7,523 bases of DNA from IMG/VR virus record IMGVR_UViG_2579779076_000001, positions 1-7,523 of that record. One strand, 5' to 3'. The position numbers and the translations under genes were made by a program. This DNA is from a virus. Its lineage: Duplodnaviria; Heunggongvirae; Uroviricota; Caudoviricetes. The notes under the pieces are model-generated. The model was not told the DNA's origin and searched no databases. It saw only the letters and a list, made by a program, of their open reading frames with translations. Positions 1 to 7,523 of this stretch are shown piece by piece. Positions within the stretch are counted from its first letter, which is position 1. Every line of letters begins with the position of its first letter.

Positions 1-119
1 TCGGTTCCGGCTCCACCAGCACCCTGCCGCAATGAAAAACAGGCCGTGATTCGCGTCCAGGCTTAAGGACCACCAGGCCAAGTTCCGGCACCAGAACAGG
101 TCGAAGTAATACCCGCACG

Positions 120-392
120 TTACCTCCAGATACGTTGCTGGAATGTGCGGGACGGACGCGGTGGATGTTCGGAATAAGGGAGCCTGACAGAGATTATCCA
201 GTGACGATAATCGAGGCTGATGGCTTTCTTAACCTCGTATCCGCGCCTGCGGTAACACTGAATCAGCCATTCGGCCTGTTCTTCAGTGCATGGGGGATGC
301 TGGTACCAGTCGGTTTTAAATACGTGCGAATGCCGCCCCCGCTTAATGGCCGGGACGGCTTCAGAATTGTGGGATTTTATACGTTGCGCCAT
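120..392 (-). CDS. hypothetical phage protein, basic, about 90 aa
   Basis: ORF-track ORF 120..410 begins with GTG; in-frame ATG at 392..390 has GGAGAA about 6 nt upstream; TAA stop at 120-122. No family recognised. An opposite-strand ORF (135..407) in the same triplet phase lacks any RBS and was not preferred. Confidence 0.5.
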   Translation of the reverse strand: MAQRIKSHNSEAVPAIKRGRHSHVFKTDWYQHPPCTEEQAEWLIQCYRRRGYEVKKAISLDYRHWIISVRLPYSEHPPRPSRTFQQRIWR

Positions 393-442
393 CGGGTTCT
401 CCGGTGACACAGCAGGTGCCAGTTGTTCAGGCCGGCGTGCGA

Positions 443-472
443 ATTGTAAACCAGAATGCCAGGAAAAAACAA
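443..472 (-). promoter_or_regulatory. candidate sigma70 promoter for the 90-aa gene (-35 TTGTTT, about 18-nt spacer, -10 TACAAT on minus strand)
   Basis: Minus-strand TACAAT at 448..443 with weak -35 about 18 nt upstream, immediately after the hok terminator T-run; leader of about 45 nt to the ATG at 392. Confidence 0.3.
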
Positions 473-490
473 AACCCGCAGAAGCGGGTT
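463..490 (-). terminator. rho-independent terminator at the 3' end of the hok mRNA
   Basis: Minus-strand hairpin AACCCGC-UUCU-GCGGGUU (plus 473-490) followed directly by UUUGUUUUUU (plus 463-472). Confidence 0.65.
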
Positions 491-558
491 AAGTGCGGGT
501 GCATTGAGGATGCCTGACACATCAGAGGTGGCGAGGGATTTCTCCCTCGCCGGGTCTC

Positions 559-714
559 TTACTTCTCAGATTCGTAAGCTGTGAAGACAGCGACCTCCGT
601 CTGGCCGGTTCGGATTCGTACCTCGCAGAGGTCTTTCCTCGTTACCAGTACCGTTACAACGACGGTAATACAGATGACGATCAGGGCGATTAGCATCGCC
701 TTTTGCTGCTTCAT
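559..714 (-). CDS. hok: Hok/Gef-family type I toxin (51 aa, single-TM membrane peptide)
   Basis: Translation MKQQKAMLIALIVICITVVVTVLVTRKDLCEVRIRTGQTEVAVFTAYESEK matches the Hok/Gef/RelF family almost residue for residue (recalled). ATG at 714..712 with AAGGAG about 9 nt upstream; TAA stop at 559-561. Confidence 0.9.
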   Translation of the reverse strand: MKQQKAMLIALIVICITVVVTVLVTRKDLCEVRIRTGQTEVAVFTAYESEK

Positions 715-771
715 AGCCTGCTGCTCCTTGCCTTTCGGCGCATAAGAGGCTAATCTAAGTGTGCAAGTCAT
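559..771 (-). CDS. mok: mok-like in-frame upstream reading frame (70 codons) overlapping hok
   Basis: ATG at 771..769 in frame with hok adds 19 N-terminal codons; TGAGG lies about 11 nt upstream. In-frame Mok extensions are known for chromosomal hok loci (MokC/HokC, recalled). Confidence 0.55.
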   Translation of the reverse strand: MTCTLRLASYAPKGKEQQAMKQQKAMLIALIVICITVVVTVLVTRKDLCEVRIRTGQTEVAVFTAYESEK

Positions 772-836
772 AGATATGGCCTCAGATTAATGTTAAGCGT
801 CCTGCAAGACGCATAATGTTAACTGGGGCTTTTCTC
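763..836 (+). ncRNA. sok: candidate Sok-like antisense RNA overlapping the mok start and hok leader
   Basis: Plus-strand -35 TTGCCT (728-733), 17-nt spacer, -10 TAATCT (751-756), start about 763; possible 3' stem 779-785/823-829 followed by TTTTCTCT (830-837). Position and size fit the hok/sok paradigm; ends are approximate. Confidence 0.35.
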
Positions 837-883
837 TGTCTGCCTTACGTCGGCATGCCCGAGGCAGACAGCCTCAAGCACCC

Positions 884-918
884 GCAGCAATTCTACTTAA
901 CTCTTCTTTCCCCGCAAA
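884..918 (-). promoter_or_regulatory. candidate hok mRNA promoter (-35 TTGCGG, -10 TAGAAT on minus strand), start about 883
   Basis: Minus-strand TAGAAT at 895..890 with TTGCGG about 16 nt upstream. The predicted 5' end GGGUGCUUGAGGCUGUCUGCC resembles the hok tac element, and an about 418-nt transcript to the terminator matches hok mRNA size. Confidence 0.4.
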
Positions 919-924
919 CCGTTT

Positions 925-1008
925 TTATCCCCAGCGGCAAATCGAATACACCACCAGCGCCACCGCCATTGCAATTCCTACCGTTATGAACGCTTCAGGC
1001 CAGGTCAT
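925..1008 (-). CDS. 27-aa hydrophobic micro-protein (MTWPEAFITVGIAMAVALVVYSICRWG), candidate small membrane peptide
   Basis: Below the ORF-track size cut-off. ATG at 1008..1006 overlaps the upstream TGA (ATGA); GAGGAG about 10 nt upstream; TAA stop at 925-927. One predicted TM helix. Confidence 0.3.
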   Translation of the reverse strand: MTWPEAFITVGIAMAVALVVYSICRWG

Positions 1009-1520
1009 CGTAAAATATTCTCCTCGTTTATCAGTCCGTTTCGCTTCAGGTAGTCCATCGCCTTATCCGGTAATTTGCAGTCCGGCTTCGCTTTTTTCAG
1101 TTGGCTGACCAGCCGTTTAACCCACATTGCTAATTCGCTAACCTGATTGCCGGATGCTGGTGGATTGTCGGCTTTACCCAGAATGGCAGCACAGCAGGCC
1201 TCTCTGAGCACCCAGTCAACAGCATCCTTCCATGCTCCTGTTTCGACTGGCGGATTCTCACGCTTTACCTGTTCATAAAAGCGCACAGCTTTAACCAGTC
1301 CTTCTGATGTCACCGGGACTGGCGGGCCGATGAATAAGGCCTGAATTTCATAGTTCGGCCTGTCGTTACAATCCTCTTTTGTCGGTACATATTTCCAGTC
1401 ACCAGCCCACGGCTTCCCCTGAAAGTCTGTAACGTCTTTTTTCACGTAGCGATATCGCCATGCAACTGGTTTTGCCTGCCCTGCCGTTTCATGCCCTTCC
1501 TGATAATTAATCTCGCTCAT
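1005..1520 (-). CDS. hypothetical phage protein, 171 aa
   Basis: ATG at 1520..1518 overlaps the stop of the upstream 58-aa ORF (ATGA); TGA stop at 1005-1007. Trp-rich N-terminal half; no family recognised. Confidence 0.7.
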   Translation of the reverse strand: MSEINYQEGHETAGQAKPVAWRYRYVKKDVTDFQGKPWAGDWKYVPTKEDCNDRPNYEIQALFIGPPVPVTSEGLVKAVRFYEQVKRENPPVETGAWKDAVDWVLREACCAAILGKADNPPASGNQVSELAMWVKRLVSQLKKAKPDCKLPDKAMDYLKRNGLINEENILR

Positions 1521-1693
1521 TCATCGCCCCACTCATCACAATATGCTTCGACCGGAGTTTTTCCTACTTCATAATCATCACGCCATGCTTCAGCATCAGC
1601 AGCACTGCCACCACGTAACTCTGCATAGTCCATTAACAGTTCATGCCATTCTTCAAAACTGACGTTGTATTTAGTTGAACCAAAATCAGCCAT
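1517..1693 (-). CDS. small acidic protein, 58 aa (MADFGSTKYNVSFEEWHELLMDYAELRGGSAADAEAWRDDYEVGKTPVEAYCDEWGDE)
   Basis: Not in the ORF track (under 60 aa). ATG at 1693..1691 with GAGGAAG about 8 nt upstream; start overlaps the upstream stop (ATGGCTGA) and its TGA overlaps the next ATG (ATGA). Confidence 0.5.
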   Translation of the reverse strand: MADFGSTKYNVSFEEWHELLMDYAELRGGSAADAEAWRDDYEVGKTPVEAYCDEWGDE

Positions 1694-1868
1694 TTTGTTC
1701 TTCCTCTTCGTCTTTTATTTCGTGATATGAGTAATTGCAGTAGTTAAAGAAAATTTCTTTTGCTTCGTTATGAATTTCATCAGGCGTCGCATCATCATTC
1801 ACTTCGAATTCATCCTCGAAATCTCCACCGGCGATTCCCGTTTCAATAATTATTTTGAACTTTCGCAT
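1686..1868 (-). CDS. small acidic protein, 60 aa, in an AT-rich island
   Basis: True ATG at 1868..1866; strongly acidic C-terminus (DEEEEQNG); visibly AT-rich compared with flanks; preceded by a 147-nt AT-rich intergenic region containing GC hairpins. Weak SD. Confidence 0.5.
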   Translation of the reverse strand: MRKFKIIIETGIAGGDFEDEFEVNDDATPDEIHNEAKEIFFNYCNYSYHEIKDEEEEQNG

Positions 1869-2015
1869 TTCACTACCGCCCTGCCGGGCGGTCTCCTGAT
1901 GTTCTGAGGGTGCAGGAATCCCTCCGGTTAAGGATTAAATTTTATTTACAGTGCTGATTTTAATTATTCAGTTCTGGATTATGCTTTCTCTTTCACCTGC
2001 CGTAGTTCCTGGTAA

Positions 2016-2321
2016 TTAATTTCGCTCACTGGTTGCCTCCTGGAAAATAACTGCATGCCCCAGTTTCTCCGCCAGTGCCAGCTCTGCCTTAGCGCCTGCC
2101 GACCGCTGCCAGCCTTCCAGCATATAAACCGCATCCACACAACGAATCATTGCCATGCAAATATCCATGTAATGTGGCTGAGTCAGCCCGTCCGGAAGTA
2201 CTGCGGGATTTAATACGGTATGCCCTTCCTGTTTCAGTGCTTCTTCCGCCTTGTGAAACGCCTCACGGTTGAAATTTTCATATCCCGTCATCGGACCGGC
2301 GATATAAATTCTCACCCTCAC
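2016..2321 (-). CDS. DUF4406 / nucleoside 2-deoxyribosyltransferase-like protein, 101 aa
   Basis: N-terminal R-I-Y-I-A-G-P-M-T-G motif, then F-N-x-x-A-F and V-L-N-P, typical of the NDT-like Rossmann fold (recalled). GTG start at 2321..2319 overlaps the upstream TGA (GTGA) with AGGAGG about 8 nt upstream; TAA stop at 2016-2018. Confidence 0.75.
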   Translation of the reverse strand: MRVRIYIAGPMTGYENFNREAFHKAEEALKQEGHTVLNPAVLPDGLTQPHYMDICMAMIRCVDAVYMLEGWQRSAGAKAELALAEKLGHAVIFQEATSERN

Positions 2322-2599
2322 GCCTGAACCCTCCTGTCGAAATAAACGTAGTTATTCACTGCGCCCAACTTCATCCCAAACTTTTCGGCAATTTCCCGTC
2401 GGGGTACGCCACGCTGATGCAGTTGCCGCGCCAGCTCAATATCACGCTGTGAACATTTGGCTGACTGGTGATAATCACCCCGTAACATCATGCAGATACC
2501 CAGTTCCCGCGCTTTCGTCCTGACGGCAGCCCCACTACGGCCAATCAGACTGCCGATGCTTTCGACTGTCATCGTTCCCGCACACTGCCGGAGTATCAT
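2318..2599 (-). CDS. small DNA-binding protein with two predicted helix-turn-helix motifs
   Basis: ORF-track start (GTG at 2722) lies inside the upstream gene. First ATG after the upstream stop is at 2599..2597; alternatives are GTG 2635 (GTGA overlap with upstream stop) and ATG 2572. HTH-like segments VESIGSLIGRSGAAVRTKAREL and RREIAEKFGMKLGAVNNYV. Start uncertain. Confidence 0.55.
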   Translation of the reverse strand: MILRQCAGTMTVESIGSLIGRSGAAVRTKARELGICMMLRGDYHQSAKCSQRDIELARQLHQRGVPRREIAEKFGMKLGAVNNYVYFDRRVQA

Positions 2600-2631
2600 A
2601 ATTTCCGCCCAGCGCCACTTCTTCCAGCCAC

Positions 2632-3348
2632 TCACCGCAGCAGCTCTCTGGTGGCGGTAATATCCCGGAGAATATCCCTGTGTTTGTTCAGTTCCCGCAG
2701 CGCGGCGCAGACACGCTCCCACTTCTGAACCTGACCTTTTGCCCGGCGCAGCTCGCGGTTAGCCACATGCAGCGATGGTAGAATCAGGTCATCTGCTTTC
2801 GTTTCGGTGACCGATGGCTGTAACTTCACAATGTCTTCCACGATTTCTGTTTTCATTTCTTCCTGTGTCGTCGTTTCCCGGACTGGTAACGCAACACCTG
2901 CTGGCTGAGGAAAGGCTTTACCATCGGTTTCCGCTACGGATGCAGCTTCCGGCTCTGCCGGTAAATCAGCGCCCGGTATGCAGTAACGAAATTTACCGCC
3001 CTGATTTACGCGAATCAGACGCCCTTTGCTGATTGCCATGGCCAGCGATGAATTCGCCCGGCGGGAGGTAATCCCGAACATAAGTGCCAGCTCATCCGCC
3101 GTTTGTGGGCCATGTTGTTCAATCGCCTCAGTCAGCATTTGCGCTGTCACTTTCGGTACCGGTGACACTGGTTCACTTTCACCTGCCTGAGTCAGCCACC
3201 ACATCGACCCCTTGTTATCCGCTTCACCACGGCGCTTCAGTTTCCACAGTTCGTTGACCGCATCTTCACGGCTGATTCCAAGGCGGGCCGCCACTACCTG
3301 TGAAGAGGCTCTTTTCAGTGCTTTCAGTGCGTCAAATACGGTTTCCAT
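2632..3348 (-). CDS. phage protein with tandem winged-helix domains and a C-terminal coiled-coil-like tail, 238 aa
   Basis: ORF-track start is TTG (3366); ATG at 3348..3346 has GGAGGAAA 7-8 nt upstream. Two internally similar wHTH-like segments (residues about 5-55 and 70-130) with shared GxKFRY-like ends; helical charged C-terminus. TGA stop at 2632-2634. Confidence 0.7.
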
Positions 3349-3381
3349 TAAAATTTCCTCCGACAAAATCGTTTCCCAGAT

Positions 3382-3843
3382 TCAAATAAAACCAGCAGCC
3401 TTCCGGCGTTCGTATTCCTGTTTCAGCCGTTCAATTGGCGTTGGCCCTTTCGGGTGTTTCGCCCCTTCCAGTTGTCGTCGCACTGGCGGAACACTCATCC
3501 CGTTACCAACATGCTTTGCCCATTTCGTCAGTTGCCGTTCCGCAAGTCGTTTTAACTCACCCTGCGTCATCTGGCGCTCAATCCCTCTGGTACGCATTTC
3601 GAGGCAGATGTGGTACAGCACAGGCTGTGGCCACGGGTATTTATCACTCCCGTCGTATCGCCAGGATTCATTGCGCCAGCGCCGGTACTCTTCCATCACG
3701 GCATCCACCGTAAGACCAAATGGATTTGCCCCACTCTCCGAAATCAGCGCAACAAACTCAGCCAGGTCCGGGGGCCACGTTTCACCCGCCCGGCAGCGGT
3801 CCATGCACTGACGGCAGACCAGACGGATTTGCTGTTCAGTCAT
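3382..3843 (-). CDS. lambda P-like replication protein (DnaB helicase loader)
   Basis: C-terminal two-thirds aligns by eye with lambda P (PPDLAEFVALISE versus PSPGQFVAWCREE; YPWPQPVLYH versus YPWKSNAHYW, recalled). Start chosen at ATG 3843..3841, overlapping the O-like stop (ATGACTGA). ORF is open up to ATG 4044, which has a good SD, so a longer 220-aa form is possible. Confidence 0.7.
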   Translation of the reverse strand: MTEQQIRLVCRQCMDRCRAGETWPPDLAEFVALISESGANPFGLTVDAVMEEYRRWRNESWRYDGSDKYPWPQPVLYHICLEMRTRGIERQMTQGELKRLAERQLTKWAKHVGNGMSVPPVRRQLEGAKHPKGPTPIERLKQEYERRKAAGFI

Positions 3844-4867
3844 CGCACCAATCTGGGCAATCCAGAGCTTCGAAGGTGCGGCCCCGTTCTTCTGAGTCCA
3901 GCGGTTCGAATACACCTCCCCCATAAGCTCCCACAGCTTCCAGGCCATTTCCGTTGCTGATAAATCCGTTGTCACGTTCCCACTGTTCGCGTGCTGCCCG
4001 GATTTCCTGAACTGCCCGTGATGCCGTGCCACCTGATGCTGCATGGCTTACCCCCTTGCTGACTGGTTTTACCTGTGCCCTGACGTGCTGCACGTGACGG
4101 GCAAATTTCTGCTCCCACTGAACCTGCGTGAAAACCTTCCCCTCCGCCATCCAGTAATCCCGGAATGCGGCAAGCTCAGCAGGTGTAAATTCCGGCTCAG
4201 GCAGAGCCATACCCCACACTGCTGCCCGTTGTCGAAAATCCGGCGACGGCTGCCAGACAGTAGTCATCGAAAATTTCCCGATGGGTTCGCTCAGGCCGTC
4301 CAGGTATTCAGGTTCGGCTGTCTGCAACGGCGCACCATTCGACTCACTGGTCGGAATACTCTCGCGCGCGTTATGTGTGGGGTTTAATTCTGTATCTGTA
4401 TCTTTATCTGTCGTGACTTGTCGTGACAGATGCGTGACACGTCGTGACTCATCGTGACAATCAGCATTATGTTTCCGCAGCTTTTCCCGCTCCCGCTGCG
4501 CTCTCTTACGCTCTGCCGGGGATTTTGCCGTTTGCGAAACGTTACCATTGTCCTCTTTCAGCACCTGACGTTTTTCCCATCCGGAAATAAGGTCACCATC
4601 CAGAACCCGCCCCTGCATTGCATGCAAAATTGAATCAATTACGTCTTCCGTCACATCAAGCGCACTTGCTAAATCTTCCGTCGTGACATCAATGTGACCA
4701 CGTAGTGACACGCCGTGACATGTCGTGACATTTCGTGACGCGCTCACCAGAAGGTGGATATACACTGCCATCACTGTTGCGATTGGCTGTCCTGATACCC
4801 TGGCAATCGTTCGCCACTTGGGGTCATTTGGCATGTCATGCCACAATCTGAGCCAGGCATTAGCCAT
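3836..4867 (-). CDS. O-like replication initiator / replisome organizer (N-terminal DNA-binding domain, DnaT-like C-terminal region)
   Basis: ORF-track start is GTG (4873); ATG at 4867..4865 has GAGGTG 3-4 nt upstream. Sits directly upstream of and coupled to the P-like gene and carries internal iteron arrays. Family assignment (DUF1376/DnaT-like) is from recall. Confidence 0.75.
   Translation of the reverse strand: MANAWLRLWHDMPNDPKWRTIARVSGQPIATVMAVYIHLLVSASRNVTTCHGVSLRGHIDVTTEDLASALDVTEDVIDSILHAMQGRVLDGDLISGWEKRQVLKEDNGNVSQTAKSPAERKRAQREREKLRKHNADCHDESRRVTHLSRQVTTDKDTDTELNPTHNARESIPTSESNGAPLQTAEPEYLDGLSEPIGKFSMTTVWQPSPDFRQRAAVWGMALPEPEFTPAELAAFRDYWMAEGKVFTQVQWEQKFARHVQHVRAQVKPVSKGVSHAASGGTASRAVQEIRAAREQWERDNGFISNGNGLEAVGAYGGGVFEPLDSEERGRTFEALDCPDWCDD
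4386..4458. repeat. iteron array 1: AT-rich direct repeats followed by five CGTGAC-core repeats at about 10.5-bp spacing (candidate origin)
   Basis: GTGAC at 4413, 4423, 4434, 4444, 4454 (spacings 10, 11, 10, 10), preceded by AT-rich ctgtatctgtatctttatctg (4390-4410). Lies in the linker-coding part of the O-like gene, as lambda ori does in O. Confidence 0.6.
4650..4739. repeat. iteron array 2: six GTGAC-core repeats at helical spacing plus one inverted GTCAC
   Basis: GTGAC at 4683, 4694, 4705, 4715, 4725, 4735 (spacings 11, 11, 10, 10, 10); inverted GTCAC at 4650-4654. Inside the N-terminal coding part of the O-like gene. Confidence 0.55.
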
Positions 4868-4935
4868 ACTCACCTCTTCTGATACCGAACTTTACCCACG
4901 AACTTCCGGAAGAAATCCGGTATAAATATTGTTGG

Positions 4936-5361
4936 TCAATGCACAACAACTGCATTACCAGGCTGACCACCACTGTTAGTCAGGGTGCCCCAGGCGATCG
5001 CTACAGCGACAAAATCATCCACATCTTTCACCAGCCGATCCCGTCGTTCGACGATCTCCCGGTAATATTCAGAACTGTGACTGCGCATACGGGCCACCAG
5101 CAAAGGCGGCATCGCCTTTTCGATCGCCGGTAACAGAGCCTGCATTTTTTCAACAGCATCAGGGGTGTCTTTATCCAGCCAACGGAAAATTTTCTGGGTA
5201 TTACGGGCCAGGGCTTCCGGATGGCTGTCGTCGTACAGTTCAGGGAACGTCATCCCCAGTTCGAAATAAGTCCGGGCTATTTCAGCTGCGGGAACTTTCT
5301 CACCGTCAGGATATGCCCAGGCATTCATCGCCATGCGGATGTGCTCATGCTTGATTTTCAT
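4936..5361 (-). CDS. ydaT: YdaT-family protein at the cII position of the immunity region
   Basis: N-terminus MKIKHEHI and length of about 141 aa match my recollection of YdaT proteins. ATG at 5361..5359 overlaps the Cro-like stop (ATGA) with GAGGAA about 8 nt upstream; TGA stop at 4936-4938. Confidence 0.65.
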   Translation of the reverse strand: MKIKHEHIRMAMNAWAYPDGEKVPAAEIARTYFELGMTFPELYDDSHPEALARNTQKIFRWLDKDTPDAVEKMQALLPAIEKAMPPLLVARMRSHSSEYYREIVERRDRLVKDVDDFVAVAIAWGTLTNSGGQPGNAVVVH

Positions 5362-5573
5362 GAATCATTCCTCATTTCGTGCGAGGTGTTATTCTTCTTT
5401 TTGTACAGCTCTGGGTTGTATTTCAATTCACCACCAGTAATTTCATCCAACTCAATTGCTCGAAGTTTTGGAATAACAGATTTCCACCGAACAACAGCCA
5501 CGTGTGAAATTCCCAGAGCCTCTGCTACTAGCCGCTTTTTTTTGAAATAGCGTAGGACATCATCTTTAAACAT
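5358..5573 (-). CDS. Cro-like / YdaS-like small HTH regulator, 71 aa
   Basis: ORF-track start is TTG (5609), inside the operator region. ATG at 5573..5571 has GGGGGAA 4-5 nt upstream. HTH segment LVAEALGISHVAVVRW; divergent from the CI-like gene across palindromic operators. Confidence 0.7.
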   Translation of the reverse strand: MFKDDVLRYFKKKRLVAEALGISHVAVVRWKSVIPKLRAIELDEITGGELKYNPELYKKKNNTSHEMRNDS

Positions 5574-5599
5574 AAATTCCCCCTGTAAAACCGAACCTA

Positions 5600-5664
5600 A
5601 AGGTAACAATAGTTACATGATAATGTCAACCATAGTGACATCCATTGGTAGTAACATTGGTTAC
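5600..5664. promoter_or_regulatory. OR-like operator region with leftward PR-like promoter
   Basis: Palindromes GTAACAATAGTTAC (5603-5616), TGTCAACCATAGTGACA (5624-5640) and GTAACATTGGTTAC (5651-5664) at about 23-25-bp centre spacing. Minus-strand -35 TTGACA (5629..5624), 18-nt spacer, -10 TACCTT (5605..5600), overlapped by the first operator. Confidence 0.55.
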
Positions 5665-6339
5665 ATGAACACTACTATTAGCGAACGCATCCGAAAGCGT
5701 CGAAGAGACATAGGTCTAACCCAACAGCAGGTTGCAAAGGCTATCGGCGTCACCCGTGTATCCGTAACAAAGTGGGAAAATGGTTCAACAAAACCGGACG
5801 GTGAGAATTTACATCTGCTGTCAAAACTGTTTTCCAAATCACCTGAATGGATTCTTTATGGGAAAGATATTCACGATCAAGTCGATGATTTGCGATTGAA
5901 TCAACTCCCCTACCTTAGTGACAACATCACCCGGTTGCCCGTTTTAACGTGGGAACAGGCTGGTTACTGGGATATGAGCTACCCAGTAACCGAAATCCCT
6001 GGTATTAAGAATTGGGTTGATGTCATGACAAAAACATCTGAAAACTCTTTTTTATTGCGCGTTGAGGGAGATTCAATGACAAACTCTAACGGTTTGCCAA
6101 CGATCCCCGACGGCTCCACGGTGTTGATCACTCCATGCTCTGGCAACATTGGGGAGATGGCGGGAAAGATTGTTCTAATCCAACTAGAAGGAATACCAAC
6201 TGTAACACTGAAAAAAGTCGCAATTGATGGCCCAAACATCTACCTACTGTCATTAAATCCGCTTTACAAGCCTATAGAACTCAATGGTCGCTACACCATT
6301 AAAGGTAAAGTCTCACAAATCCATCAATACTTAGATTGA
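5665..6339 (+). CDS. CI-like repressor: XRE-type HTH N-terminal domain plus S24 (LexA-like) autopeptidase C-terminal domain
   Basis: HTH segment LTQQQVAKAIGVTRVSVTKWENG; C-terminal domain with GDSM (Ser) and KK (Lys) dyad context. ORF-track ATG at 5617 would place two operators inside the coding region, so ATG 5665, abutting the third operator, is preferred (leaderless-like, as lambda cI from PRM). Alternative start 5617. TGA stop at 6337-6339. Confidence 0.8.
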   Translation: MNTTISERIRKRRRDIGLTQQQVAKAIGVTRVSVTKWENGSTKPDGENLHLLSKLFSKSPEWILYGKDIHDQVDDLRLNQLPYLSDNITRLPVLTWEQAGYWDMSYPVTEIPGIKNWVDVMTKTSENSFLLRVEGDSMTNSNGLPTIPDGSTVLITPCSGNIGEMAGKIVLIQLEGIPTVTLKKVAIDGPNIYLLSLNPLYKPIELNGRYTIKGKVSQIHQYLD

Positions 6340-6345
6340 CCAAAA

Positions 6346-6368
6346 GCCCGCATATATTGCGGGTTTTT
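6346..6368 (+). terminator. rho-independent terminator after the repressor gene
   Basis: Stem 6347-6352 / 6358-6363 (CCCGCA / TGCGGG) with 5-nt loop, followed by TTTTT (6364-6368), 7 nt after the stop codon. Confidence 0.7.
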
Positions 6369-6381
6369 CACACGCCTTTAT

Positions 6382-6429
6382 GTAACTTATAGAACACGCA
6401 TTGACTCAACGAGTAACTTCTGTTACCTT
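6382..6429 (+). promoter_or_regulatory. OL/PL-like operator-promoter for rightward early transcription
   Basis: Perfect operator GTAACTTCTGTTAC (6413-6426) and degenerate GTAACTTATAGAAC (6382-6395). -35 TTGACT (6401-6406), 17-nt spacer, -10 TACCTT (6424-6429): the same -35 / operator / -10 layout and identical -10 hexamer as the PR-like promoter. Confidence 0.5.
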
Positions 6430-6605
6430 CATTGCGTACCCACCCCGTCCCACAGAACGCCGGGCAATACTTCGAGTTACCCGGCAGTGGTCAGGGGTTA
6501 AGTAGCCAGCCCGAGGCGTATGAACATGACGGCGGGAACACTTTGTATAACAGCGCAGCAGGTTTTTAGTTCCGCTACCCGGCGTTAAGGGGAAATGAGG
6601 TCAAC

Positions 6606-6758
6606 ATGGATACGCTCAATCTTGGCAACAACGAATCTCTGGTATGCGGCGTGTTTCCCAACCAGGACGGCACGTTTACCGCGATGACGTATACCAGAAG
6701 CAAAACGTTTAAAACTGAAGCTGGCGCGCGTCGCTGGTTAACCAGAAACACTGACTGA
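6606..6758 (+). CDS. small protein, 50 aa (MDTLNLGNNESLVCGVFPNQDGTFTAMTYTRSKTFKTEAGARRWLTRNTD), possibly YdaF-like
   Basis: Not in the ORF track. ATG at 6606 with GAGGT about 5 nt upstream; TGA stop at 6756-6758 overlaps the next ATG (TGATG). Resemblance to Rac YdaF-type small proteins is a weak recollection. Confidence 0.5.
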   Translation: MDTLNLGNNESLVCGVFPNQDGTFTAMTYTRSKTFKTEAGARRWLTRNTD

Positions 6759-6769
6759 TGAGGTTGACG

Positions 6770-7144
6770 ATGGAATTTAAAGATTTACCACTACCATTCC
6801 AGGAAATGGCTGCGAATATAGTTCGTTCTCAACTGGCCACTCTTGACCTGAGTACCGTAGAAAAAGAAACCATCGATAATATATCCGGTAACGTACGCCG
6901 AGCCTTTATCGGGCTGTACGAAGAGAAGCAGCTCTCTGATAACCAGGATTTACATGAAAAATACTTTCTGGAATTAATGGACATCATTAATAAAGGATTT
7001 GGCTTGTTAATGAAAAAGAAAGGGATTCGAATAGCTCCCCTTGAAAATCATTTTACAGCAAGCAGTATTAACTCCTGTGATTTAAAGCATCACACATCCG
7101 ATGGGAAAGTTGAATCAAACAACAAAATATCAATTAATCATTAA
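6770..7144 (+). CDS. hypothetical AT-rich cargo protein, 124 aa, first sizeable gene of the PL-like operon
   Basis: ORF-track start 6758 (ATG) has no SD; ATG 6770 has GAGGT 6-7 nt upstream. Visibly AT-rich, Lys/Asn/Ser-rich C-terminal half; no TM segment; no family recognised. TAA stop at 7142-7144. Confidence 0.65.
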   Translation: MEFKDLPLPFQEMAANIVRSQLATLDLSTVEKETIDNISGNVRRAFIGLYEEKQLSDNQDLHEKYFLELMDIINKGFGLLMKKKGIRIAPLENHFTASSINSCDLKHHTSDGKVESNNKISINH

Positions 7145-7455
7145 TTTATTCACGGGTGAGGTAGAGCGCGTGCGCCGGACACGGATAAGAATCCGGCACT
7201 GACAGTTTACTGAAAGAACATATCCCTGAAAAGTCAGGGCATAACACGAAAGCGCACGGCGAGAATATAAGGCTTGTCGTTAAATTTAATTCGATCGTGC
7301 GCTTCCGGTTGTGGCAATCCGCGAAATGGCGCGGCGGTAAGTATGGCTGGGGCTTCCTCCATTGCTCCAGAAAATGCACCGGGTTGTCAGGTTGACCATG
7401 CGCCTGAGTGACAACACCGCCACAACAACCTCTGTTATCACTTTTCTGGTGATTC

Positions 7456-7481
7456 GGCGGAAATGGATATCCGCCATTTTT
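7456..7481 (+). terminator. candidate rho-independent terminator (plus strand)
   Basis: Stem GGCGGA (7456-7461) / TCCGCC (7470-7475) with 8-nt loop, followed by ATTTTT (7476-7481). No convincing upstream CDS in 7145-7455, so the transcript it ends is unclear. Confidence 0.45.
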
Positions 7482-7523
7482 AAAGTGTATTTTGTGATGC
7501 GGTGAATGCGGCTAAGCGCACGC

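Follow-up and report, generated by a model that had tools for sequence, protein, structure and literature searches.

The window analysed here is a stretch of 7,523 nucleotides that makes up positions 1 to 7,523 of the IMG/VR virus record IMGVR_UViG_2579779076_000001, assigned to the tailed phages (Caudoviricetes). On its minus strand lies the gene of a replication initiator, the reading frame of which holds two separate arrays of the same short repeat, one of them directly followed by an AT-rich tract. These arrays, their counterparts in relatives of the gene and the part they may play in a replication origin are the subject of this work.

The initiator gene and its repeat arrays

The gene and the elements within it are, by window position:

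3836–4867, minus strand: replication initiator gene, 343 aa from the ATG at 4867, with a winged-helix N-terminal domain (N-domain), a basic linker and a DnaT-like C-terminal domain
4568–4867, minus strand: coding region of the N-terminal winged-helix domain, about aa 1–100
4681–4740, minus strand: upstream (promoter-proximal) array, the "array 2" of the first-pass annotation; six direct copies of GTCAC(G) at steps of 10–11 bp
4648–4656, plus strand: single inverted copy of the core, with GTCAC at 4650–4654, about 30 bp promoter-distal of the upstream array
4411–4459, minus strand: linker (downstream) array, the "array 1" of the first-pass annotation; five direct copies of (T/A)GTCACGAC(R) at steps of 10–11 bp
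4380–4410, minus strand: AT-rich, purine-skewed tract, AGATAAAGATACAGATACAGAATTAAACCC on the coding strand, directly following the linker array; proposed DNA unwinding element (DUE)
4073–4273, minus strand: DnaT-like domain in the C-terminal half of the initiator; Pfam PF17948, 62.6 bits against a cut-off of 25, aa 201–267 of the 345-aa open reading frame

The initiator gene being on the minus strand, both arrays read GTCAC in the sense direction. The fuller repeat unit is (T)CGTGAC(A) on the plus strand, which corresponds to the (T/A)GTCACGAC(R) of the coding strand. On the plus strand, GTGAC starts at 4413, 4423, 4434, 4444 and 4454 in the linker array (steps of 10, 11, 10 and 10 bp) and at 4683, 4694, 4705, 4715, 4725 and 4735 in the upstream array (steps of 11, 11, 10, 10 and 10 bp). 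In the window as a whole GTGAC occurs 27 times as compared with an expectation of 13.3 ± 3.3, a count that none of 200 shuffles reached. In a stricter control, synonymous codons were resampled 5000 times with the protein held constant; the longest 10/11-phased run of any 5-mer was at least 5 copies long in 2 of the 5000 resamples and 6 in none, the runs of the real gene being 6 and 5, and GTCAC is found 12 times in the gene against a resampled mean of 2.4 and a maximum of 9. Because codon resampling almost never yields such runs, the arrays are real and are no by-product of the amino-acid sequence. The positions and the excess over both kinds of control thus bear out the five and six GTGAC repeats at 10–11-bp steps that the first-pass annotation had reported, and three or more direct repeats at helical spacing, a hallmark of iteron origins, are found in both arrays.

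The two arrays lie in different parts of the protein-coding sequence. The upstream array falls within its first 190 nt and occupies codons 43–62, encoding aa 43–62 (ASRNVTTCHGVSLRGHIDVT), a loop of low confidence between helices 29–45 and 63–70 that is the variable loop of the winged helix. The linker array, the promoter-distal one of the two, occupies codons about 137–152, which form the inter-domain linker. By structure comparison the fold of the N-domain is a winged helix resembling the N-terminal domain of DnaD, and it is this domain that is presumed to bind the iterons.

The open reading frame of the initiator runs over 3836–4873 on the minus strand (345 aa), the ATG at 4867 being the annotated start in an identical copy of the gene in E. 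coli RM10466 (5537–6568 of locus L002), where the product is annotated as a "DnaT-like ssDNA-binding domain-containing protein". The best PHROG matches of the protein are 1408/3729, "replication initiation protein", and many of its relatives are named "phage replisome organizer" by NCBI. The first-pass annotation had described it as an O-like initiator, which stands as regards its role and falls as regards homology, since a Pfam scan (E ≤ 0.01) returned DnaT only and no Phage_rep_O match, and since the protein joins a winged-helix N-domain to a DnaT-like C-domain. The NCBIfam DnaT equivalog model scores 94.5 bits, under its cut-off of 201, over aa 194–269 only; on these matches, the initiator appears to contain a DnaT-like domain but not to be DnaT. 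The replisome-organiser N-terminal model TIGR01714 gives no match to the initiator of the window itself, and an 85% identical N-domain (L008) reaches 15.5 bits (E 0.015) under a cut-off of 49.8.

Searches for other regulatory elements around the arrays were negative. No third cluster of the motif, sought as a counterpart to oriR of SPP1, was found in the window or in 28 kb of the RM10466 prophage, the late region beyond 28 kb lying outside the search. An Rfam scan of the window returned a sok RNA at 709–883 only and nothing at the arrays, and DnaA boxes (TTWTNCACA, up to 1 mismatch) are not enriched and do not occur at the arrays. A promoter and terminator scan of 3800–5700 gave counts at or below the shuffle expectation, hence no evidence for an internal promoter or RNA element, and neither a repressor-like palindrome nor a promoter was found at the upstream array. 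One promoter-like site, at 4434–4461, was set aside as it is composed of the iterons themselves.

Elsewhere in the gene a perfect 15-bp palindrome, TGGCATGTCATGCCA, spans initiator codons W9-H10-D11-M12-P13 at 4829–4843. In diverged homologues the Asp11 codon is GAC in 24 of 25 and the His10 codon is split between CAT (15) and CAC (11); because the latter varies, the palindrome is not generally conserved.

The arrays in relatives of the gene

Relatives were collected as 67 loci fetched from distinct species, and 63 genes, the window's own included, were examined at 37–97% identity. About two-thirds of the 63 carry two phased arrays at the same positions, near nt 117–181 and nt 345–450 of the gene, so that the two-array layout, which the first-pass annotation had called unusual, is indeed unusual relative to lambda and is the usual state within this family. 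An upstream array of three or more copies is present in 43 of the 63 by an ACG-anchored count and in 35 by a stricter count of the same 6-mer; automated picking of the core mis-assigned L025, L026 and L044 among others, for which the printed sequences and ACG-anchored chains were used. Both arrays are found in homologues down to about 50% identity, in Gamma- and Betaproteobacteria and in metagenome-assembled genomes (MAGs) assigned to Acidobacteria, and in nearly all homologues a linker array with the core of the upstream array is present at the same position in the gene.

The core itself differs between members of the family. It is GTCACG in E. coli, Pseudomonas, Bordetella, Aquitalea, Stenotrophomonas and others, CGAACGC in Janthinobacterium, Variovorax, Methylibium and the Acidobacteria-assigned MAGs, GTAACG(C) in Pantoea, Enterobacter, Marinobacter and a Sphingomonas, and GTGACGC in a single locus (L069); in a Sphingobium locus (L056) the downstream array alone is of the CGAACGC kind (GGAACGC). 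Importantly, the two arrays of a gene change together. Among the 35 scorable loci, i.e. those with at least three anchored copies in each array, 32 have the same trinucleotide ahead of ACG in both arrays (GTC in 20, CGA in 8 and GTA in 4); in 10,000 label permutations the agreement averaged 14.4 loci and never exceeded 24. L069 is an exception, one half of its upstream array being CGAACGC and the other GTGACGC, and its linker array pure GTGACGC. In a neighbour-joining (NJ) tree from which the residues encoded by the arrays were left out, the motif classes are interspersed, and L038, L043, L045/L050, L031 and L044 are each unlike their tree neighbours in both arrays at once, which suggests that the core may have switched jointly in both arrays several times, crude as the tree is. 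The match between the arrays is one of DNA and not of peptide, because the loops of L044 and L069 both read RGVTQ and yet the Val codon is GTA in L044, the linker array of which is GTAACGC, and GTG in L069, with a linker array of GTGACGC, each codon tracking its own linker core.

Consistent with that, the codons under the arrays are constrained at the nucleotide level. The GTCAC class was assessed in 25 diverged genes, with a mean pairwise N-domain identity of about 72% (26-gene set). At codons of conserved residues elsewhere the commonest codon is used in 55% of the sequences, i.e. synonymous sites are saturated, while for the six codons with their third base inside the upstream core the figure is 97% (0.97 vs 0.55, Mann-Whitney p = 1.2e-4). 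Val47 is GTC, Thr48 ACG, Gly57 GGT and His58 CAC in 25 of 25 genes each, and Arg56, the third base of which falls in the spacer, is free (32%). The CGAACGC (GAACG) class behaves in the same way (0.98 vs 0.58, p = 1.7e-4). The inverted copy is likewise conserved, as the codon of Val72 is GTG in all 21 homologues with Val at that place, preserving GACGTGACAGA at window positions 4650–4654. The synonymous-site comparison that the first-pass annotation had proposed as a check therefore gives frozen core codons among saturated neighbours. The finding it had named as contrary, homologues encoding the same peptide without the nucleotide repeats, did not turn up: genes that retain the peptide also retain the codons, a changed core goes with a changed peptide, and genes without the upstream array encode an unrelated loop.

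The upstream array is not universal. It is absent, with the linker array retained, in about 14–20 of the 63 relatives, between about a quarter and a third of them, and an Alphaproteobacteria-rich branch has the downstream array only, with the exception of L050. It was considered whether extra linker copies compensate for a missing upstream array, an idea that was dropped given means of about 4.1 and 3.9 copies (an automated count gave 3.3 and 3.8, with the core mis-picked in some loci). In one such gene (L054) the linker array consists of three copies of ATGTCACGCC and the upstream array has decayed; its nearest relative (L064, N-domains 76% identical) has CGAACGC in both arrays, with the linker core CCGAACGC. 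The loop of L054 (2501–3310) reads SSAEDRGH, as against SNATERGR in L064 (2501–3270), and the natural pair could serve to map the residues of specificity.

Two further lineages share peculiarities between their arrays. In L031 (gene nt about 130–185 and 420–470) a 5-bp tandem, GTCACGTCACGTCACG, and a palindrome, GTCACGTGAC, occur in both arrays, and in the same regions of L025 the sequence GTAACGTTAC does so, which points to an exchange of sequence between the arrays, as judged from these shared quirks. In both lineages the upstream array has expanded independently, by 6-aa inserts.

The genes around the initiator are not constant either. Downstream of it, distant members have a P-like loader, DnaB, a primase-helicase, DUF6475, RusA or DUF977, and upstream of it YdaT, NinB, a helix-turn-helix (HTH) protein or nothing recognisable, so that of all gene segments the winged-helix N-domain alone is found with the arrays throughout. 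Co-variation and constraint at the DNA level, which would be expected of the iterons of an origin, are thus both found here, in the matching cores of the 32 loci, the frozen core codons and the N-domain as constant neighbour.

The AT-rich tract and the genomic setting

The first-pass annotation had seen an origin layout in "array 1" together with the adjoining AT-rich tract and its direct repeats, a description that agrees with the present data. The tract at 4380–4410 has a GC content of 0.30, the lowest within the initiator gene (profile of 4200–4950; the intergenic 4910–4949 is equally low), and holds the direct repeats TCTGTATCTGT and TCTTTATCTGT. In nearly all relatives a (GATAAA/GATACA)n tract directly follows the linker array, as (C)AGATAAAGATAAAGATA... 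or GATACAGATACA..., encoding DKDKD or DTDTD, and in 40 of 52 homologues no other 30-mer of the gene is as rich in AT. AT content averages 0.74 in the sequence following the linker array, as against 0.56 in that following the upstream array and 0.43 over the whole gene (paired Wilcoxon p = 1.7e-7). The tract persists in GC-rich hosts (31–40% AT), as in L030, which is 31% AT overall and 77% in the tract. An AT-rich unwinding tract after the upstream array was found in none of the relatives; the adjacent AT-rich element that is typical of an iteron origin is therefore present at the linker array and missing at the upstream one.

Three loci from Ventosimonas and Entomomonas MAGs (L037, L039 and L051) keep the (GATAAA)n tract with at most 1–2 recognisable repeats before it and without an upstream array. 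Their origin may be degenerate or may use sites missed by the ACG-anchored search.

Directly downstream of the initiator gene lies the following gene:

3382–3843, minus strand: lambda-P-like helicase-loader gene; Pfam PF06992 Phage_lambda_P, 1e-15; PHROG 109, "P-like helicase loader"

It is annotated as "replication protein P" in RM10466. Its start overlaps the stop of the initiator gene by 8 bp (3836–3843), which suggests translational coupling, and the longest open reading frame in the loader frame extends to 4044. Upstream of the initiator there follow a YdaT-like gene, a Cro-like gene and a divergent CI/LexA-like repressor. Together these genes form an early-right operon of the lambdoid kind, with an initiator other than O.

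The replication module is very widespread. Of 5426 complete E. coli genomes, 2277 have a match to a 601-bp segment that holds both arrays, O157:H7 prophages included, so that about four in ten of these genomes carry the initiator gene, with Shiga-toxin prophages among its carriers. The array region is 100% identical in the Stx2a prophage of E. coli RM10466. In that prophage (L157, 39174–40414) stxA2/stxB lie about 8 kb downstream of the initiator, and the immunity region has HTH and RelBE genes as against the CI-like S24 repressor at 5617–6339 of the window. A set of 91 near-identical loci, made up of 80 IMG/VR viral contigs and 11 loci of E. coli, Shigella, E. albertii and phages, has 4 or 6 copies in the upstream array in almost all cases and 4–6 in the linker array. 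Copies at about 85% identity from E. coli and phages (phage Evi, L007–L009) retain both arrays and the 229-bp gap between them, with four upstream copies, not six, and exactly 21 bp, or 7 codons, fewer.

The gene is a mosaic. BLAST matches to different phages break at 4389–4409, within the AT tract, and the 3' half that adjoins the 5' part, with its N-domain and two arrays, varies from phage to phage. Because the mosaicism breaks there, the N-domain and the repeats can be taken to move together as a cassette that is joined at the AT tract; the O/ori cassettes of lambdoid phages behave alike, being moved as a unit. The ydaU gene of Rac-SA53 (L158) has the 3' half and the AT tract in common with the window, and its N-terminus is of an unrelated, DUF1376-type kind and without GTCAC arrays. 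Just before its tract (gene nt about 480–530) it has instead an inverted repeat, GTGTTCAAAC...GTGTTTGAACA, which suggests that the same unwinding element is here combined with another initiator-site cassette.

At the other end of the window there is a complete hok/sok-type toxin-antitoxin locus on the minus strand, with sok at 709–883 (Rfam, 113 bits) and a Hok/Gef open reading frame at about 559–714; in the identical copy from E. coli, a Hok/Gef family protein is annotated beside sok.

A candidate two-part origin and its known counterparts

In our judgement the window probably contains a two-part replication origin of a lambdoid-type prophage inside its own initiator gene, to which the initiator would bind and from which replication would start. 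We read the linker array and the AT tract as its putative core, and the upstream array as a candidate accessory array for binding of the initiator. The N-domain is the most economical candidate for the binder, because it is the only constant companion of the arrays, the C-terminal half and the flanks being exchangeable. In the model proposed here, the N-terminal winged-helix domains would bind the repeats of the linker array side by side on one face of the helix, given that the sites are 10–11 bp apart, the adjacent purine-skewed (GATAAA/GATACA)n tract would melt, and the C-terminal half of the initiator would, together with the P-like loader, bring in the host DnaB helicase, as in lambda. The second part would consist of the six copies of the same repeat at 4681–4740, about 230 bp promoter-proximal, as an accessory site for the same protein. 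The version we prefer is that the initiator bound there cooperates in cis with the origin array, looping or wrapping about 230–280 bp of DNA, which would raise occupancy and help to strain the AT tract; as a side effect, the bound protein would obstruct transcription of the initiator gene. Because the upstream array has no unwinding tract and is absent in many relatives (the 14–20 or so mentioned above), an accessory or control role is more likely for it than that of a second origin, which accords with the first-pass suggestion that "array 2" might be regulatory.

It has to be noted that several points weigh against this proposal. The upstream array is not essential, because so many relatives have lost it while keeping the linker array, and the data fit a helping and a restraining role of that array alike, although they do not fit a second origin. 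The gaps between the arrays show no significant helical phasing (Rayleigh p ~0.2; 17 distinct gaps of 193–261 bp, taken at 10.3–10.7 bp per turn), and no fixed loop geometry is therefore supported. Lying about 230 bp apart, the arrays could be carried along or homogenised by recombination or gene conversion, and homogenisation could weaken the claim that each array is separately selected. The tree is a rough NJ one on about 79 positions, and both the permutation and the synonymous-site tests ignore phylogeny. In DnaD itself, the N-terminal domain mediates oligomerisation, not binding to duplex DNA. Finally, binding, footprint or replication data for any member of the family were not found in the literature, coverage of which was incomplete.

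The alternative that survives best is a negative control element, which we regard as possible, though appreciably less so than the accessory role. According to it, the upstream array would act by titration, by handcuffing with the origin array or as a block to RNA polymerase, limiting initiation as well as initiator synthesis, and the linker array would still be the origin. The absence of an unwinding tract beside the upstream array in every relative, its dispensability in many lineages and its polymorphic copy number in E. coli (4 or 6) all agree with this, as does its place within the first 190 nt of the gene, where bound protein would meet every transcribing polymerase; moreover, the P1 and F replicons are known to be built in this way, with a second iteron array that has no DUE and restrains replication. 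On the other hand, a lytically replicating phage has no obvious need to restrain its copy number, there is no repressor-like palindrome or promoter at the upstream array, and computations of this kind cannot separate helping from hindering.

It is unlikely that the arrays are bound by a protein other than the initiator, be it of the phage or of the host, or that they are kept by concerted evolution with a functionless upstream array. Binding by the initiator is itself a prediction, and the quirks common to both arrays within one genome (GTCACGTCACGTCACG and GTCACGTGAC in L031, GTAACGTTAC in L025) are what gene conversion would yield. A host factor is argued against because the motif switches between the phages of closely related hosts (GTCACG in E. 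coli, GTAACG in Enterobacter and Pantoea) and is not the same in phages from related genera, and another phage protein by the variable flanking genes, none of which consistently accompanies the arrays. A functionless array would not be expected to keep 10–11-bp phasing and frozen synonymous sites in a conserved domain across such divergence, and under concerted evolution the upstream array of L054, the linker core of which differs from that of its nearest relative L064, might have persisted, yet it decayed.

That both arrays are independent origins, two in one gene and each able to fire, is highly improbable. In its favour are the 5–6 phased copies of the same site in both arrays, the mildly AT-rich stretch (GC 0.37–0.40) at 4610–4659, promoter-distal of the upstream array, and the example of SPP1, in which the initiator binds two ori regions (PMC6316719). 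Against it, what follows the upstream array in the relatives is ordinary coding DNA (mean best AT 0.56 vs 0.74), the (GATAAA)n tract follows the linker array only, and many lineages lose the upstream array and retain the linker array.

Going back to the two-part origin, a speculative addition, which we hold to be rather doubtful, is that the loop encoded by the upstream array (aa 44–62) itself reads the iteron, site and reader then being the same nucleotides. No other segment of this domain, which is conserved elsewhere, is strongly class-specific; in the loop, SRNVT..RGH..VT accompanies GTCACG and SNATERGRTQ accompanies CGAACGC, and a hint in the same direction comes from L054, which has no upstream array and still keeps the His of "RGH" in a non-iteron codon context (GGA CAC), with a linker of the GTCACGC type. 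If this were true, a change of the repeat would rewrite the binding site and the residues that read it together, which would provide a built-in route to concerted switches of origin specificity and hence to replicon incompatibility groups.

Given how widespread the module is, an origin and its specificity class would give a handle on prophage induction and toxin gene dosage, on replicon typing and on the incompatibility of co-resident prophages. With at least three to four iteron classes, and with arrays that have been gained, expanded or lost, the family forms a natural series for the co-evolution of an initiator with sites inside its own reading frame, and since the upstream array can be erased by synonymous recoding with the protein unchanged, a clean experiment is possible.

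No paper on the iterons or origins of this initiator family was found in the literature, which, coverage being incomplete, is absence of evidence only, and studies of the non-lambdoid Stx phages' replication regions make no mention of origins or iterons. The proposed arrangement can be compared with several known systems, of which lambda is the closest in layout. The lambda ori, located midway in gene O, comprises four iterons and an AT-rich tract, and the Stx phages 933W and P27 have a six-iteron ori with 13 extra residues in O (PMC7466680). As in these phages, the number of iterons in the present family varies between phages with matching codon insertions (PMC7466680). The origin proposed here would likewise lie in the middle of the initiator gene, in the coding link between an N-terminal origin-binding and a C-terminal loader-binding domain, with iterons, then an AT-rich tract and, downstream, a gene for a P-type loader, a likeness by analogy that does not establish homology. 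The N-domain and the iterons are also exchanged as a specificity cassette with its junction at the AT tract, as in lambda. The iterons of lambda are 19-bp units with internal symmetry. The sites of the window differ from them in being 10–11-bp direct repeats, the initiator has no sequence relationship to O, and the window has, unlike lambda, a further array at a distance of about 230 bp, within the region coding for the DNA-binding domain.

In SPP1, oriL consists of AB boxes and a DUE inside gene 38 and is bound by the replisome organiser G38P, and oriR, a second G38P-bound region about 13 kb away, is intergenic and has an AT-rich element of its own (PMC5737612, PMC6316719). The likeness consists in an origin within the gene of the replisome organiser, with direct repeats, an adjacent AT-rich DUE and an initiator that is not of the AAA+ type, and in a second initiator-bound region in the genome, which is what the second array of the window would be. 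The differences are that this array is in the same gene, has no AT tract and overlaps the codons of the binding domain, and that the similarity of the protein to the replisome-organiser N-terminal model is under threshold.

The plasmids P1 (incC/incA) and F (incB/incC) have two iteron arrays that flank the initiator gene in non-coding DNA, with iterons of about 19 bp, initiators of the RepA/RepE type with a double winged helix and a proven control function of the second array. They share with the window two arrays of the same repeat, one beside an unwinding element, as origin, and the other without, and the upstream array is in this respect of the P1 incA/F incC type, i.e. a second array of the origin iterons that lacks an unwinding element. 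It differs in that the arrays of the window are coding and inside the initiator gene, where a restraining role is a candidate only. The satellite phage P4 has, in ori and crr, two clusters of the same short repeat bound by its alpha protein, the second cluster being a positive cis element needed for replication. Two separate clusters of one short repeat are common to P4 and the window, where binding by the initiator is proposed, whereas the initiator of P4 is a primase-helicase unrelated to the protein of the window and its clusters are about 4.5 kb apart. What is new in the present family, as compared with these systems, is a second array that lies in the same gene, overlaps the codons of the variable loop and changes jointly with the origin array across a large family.

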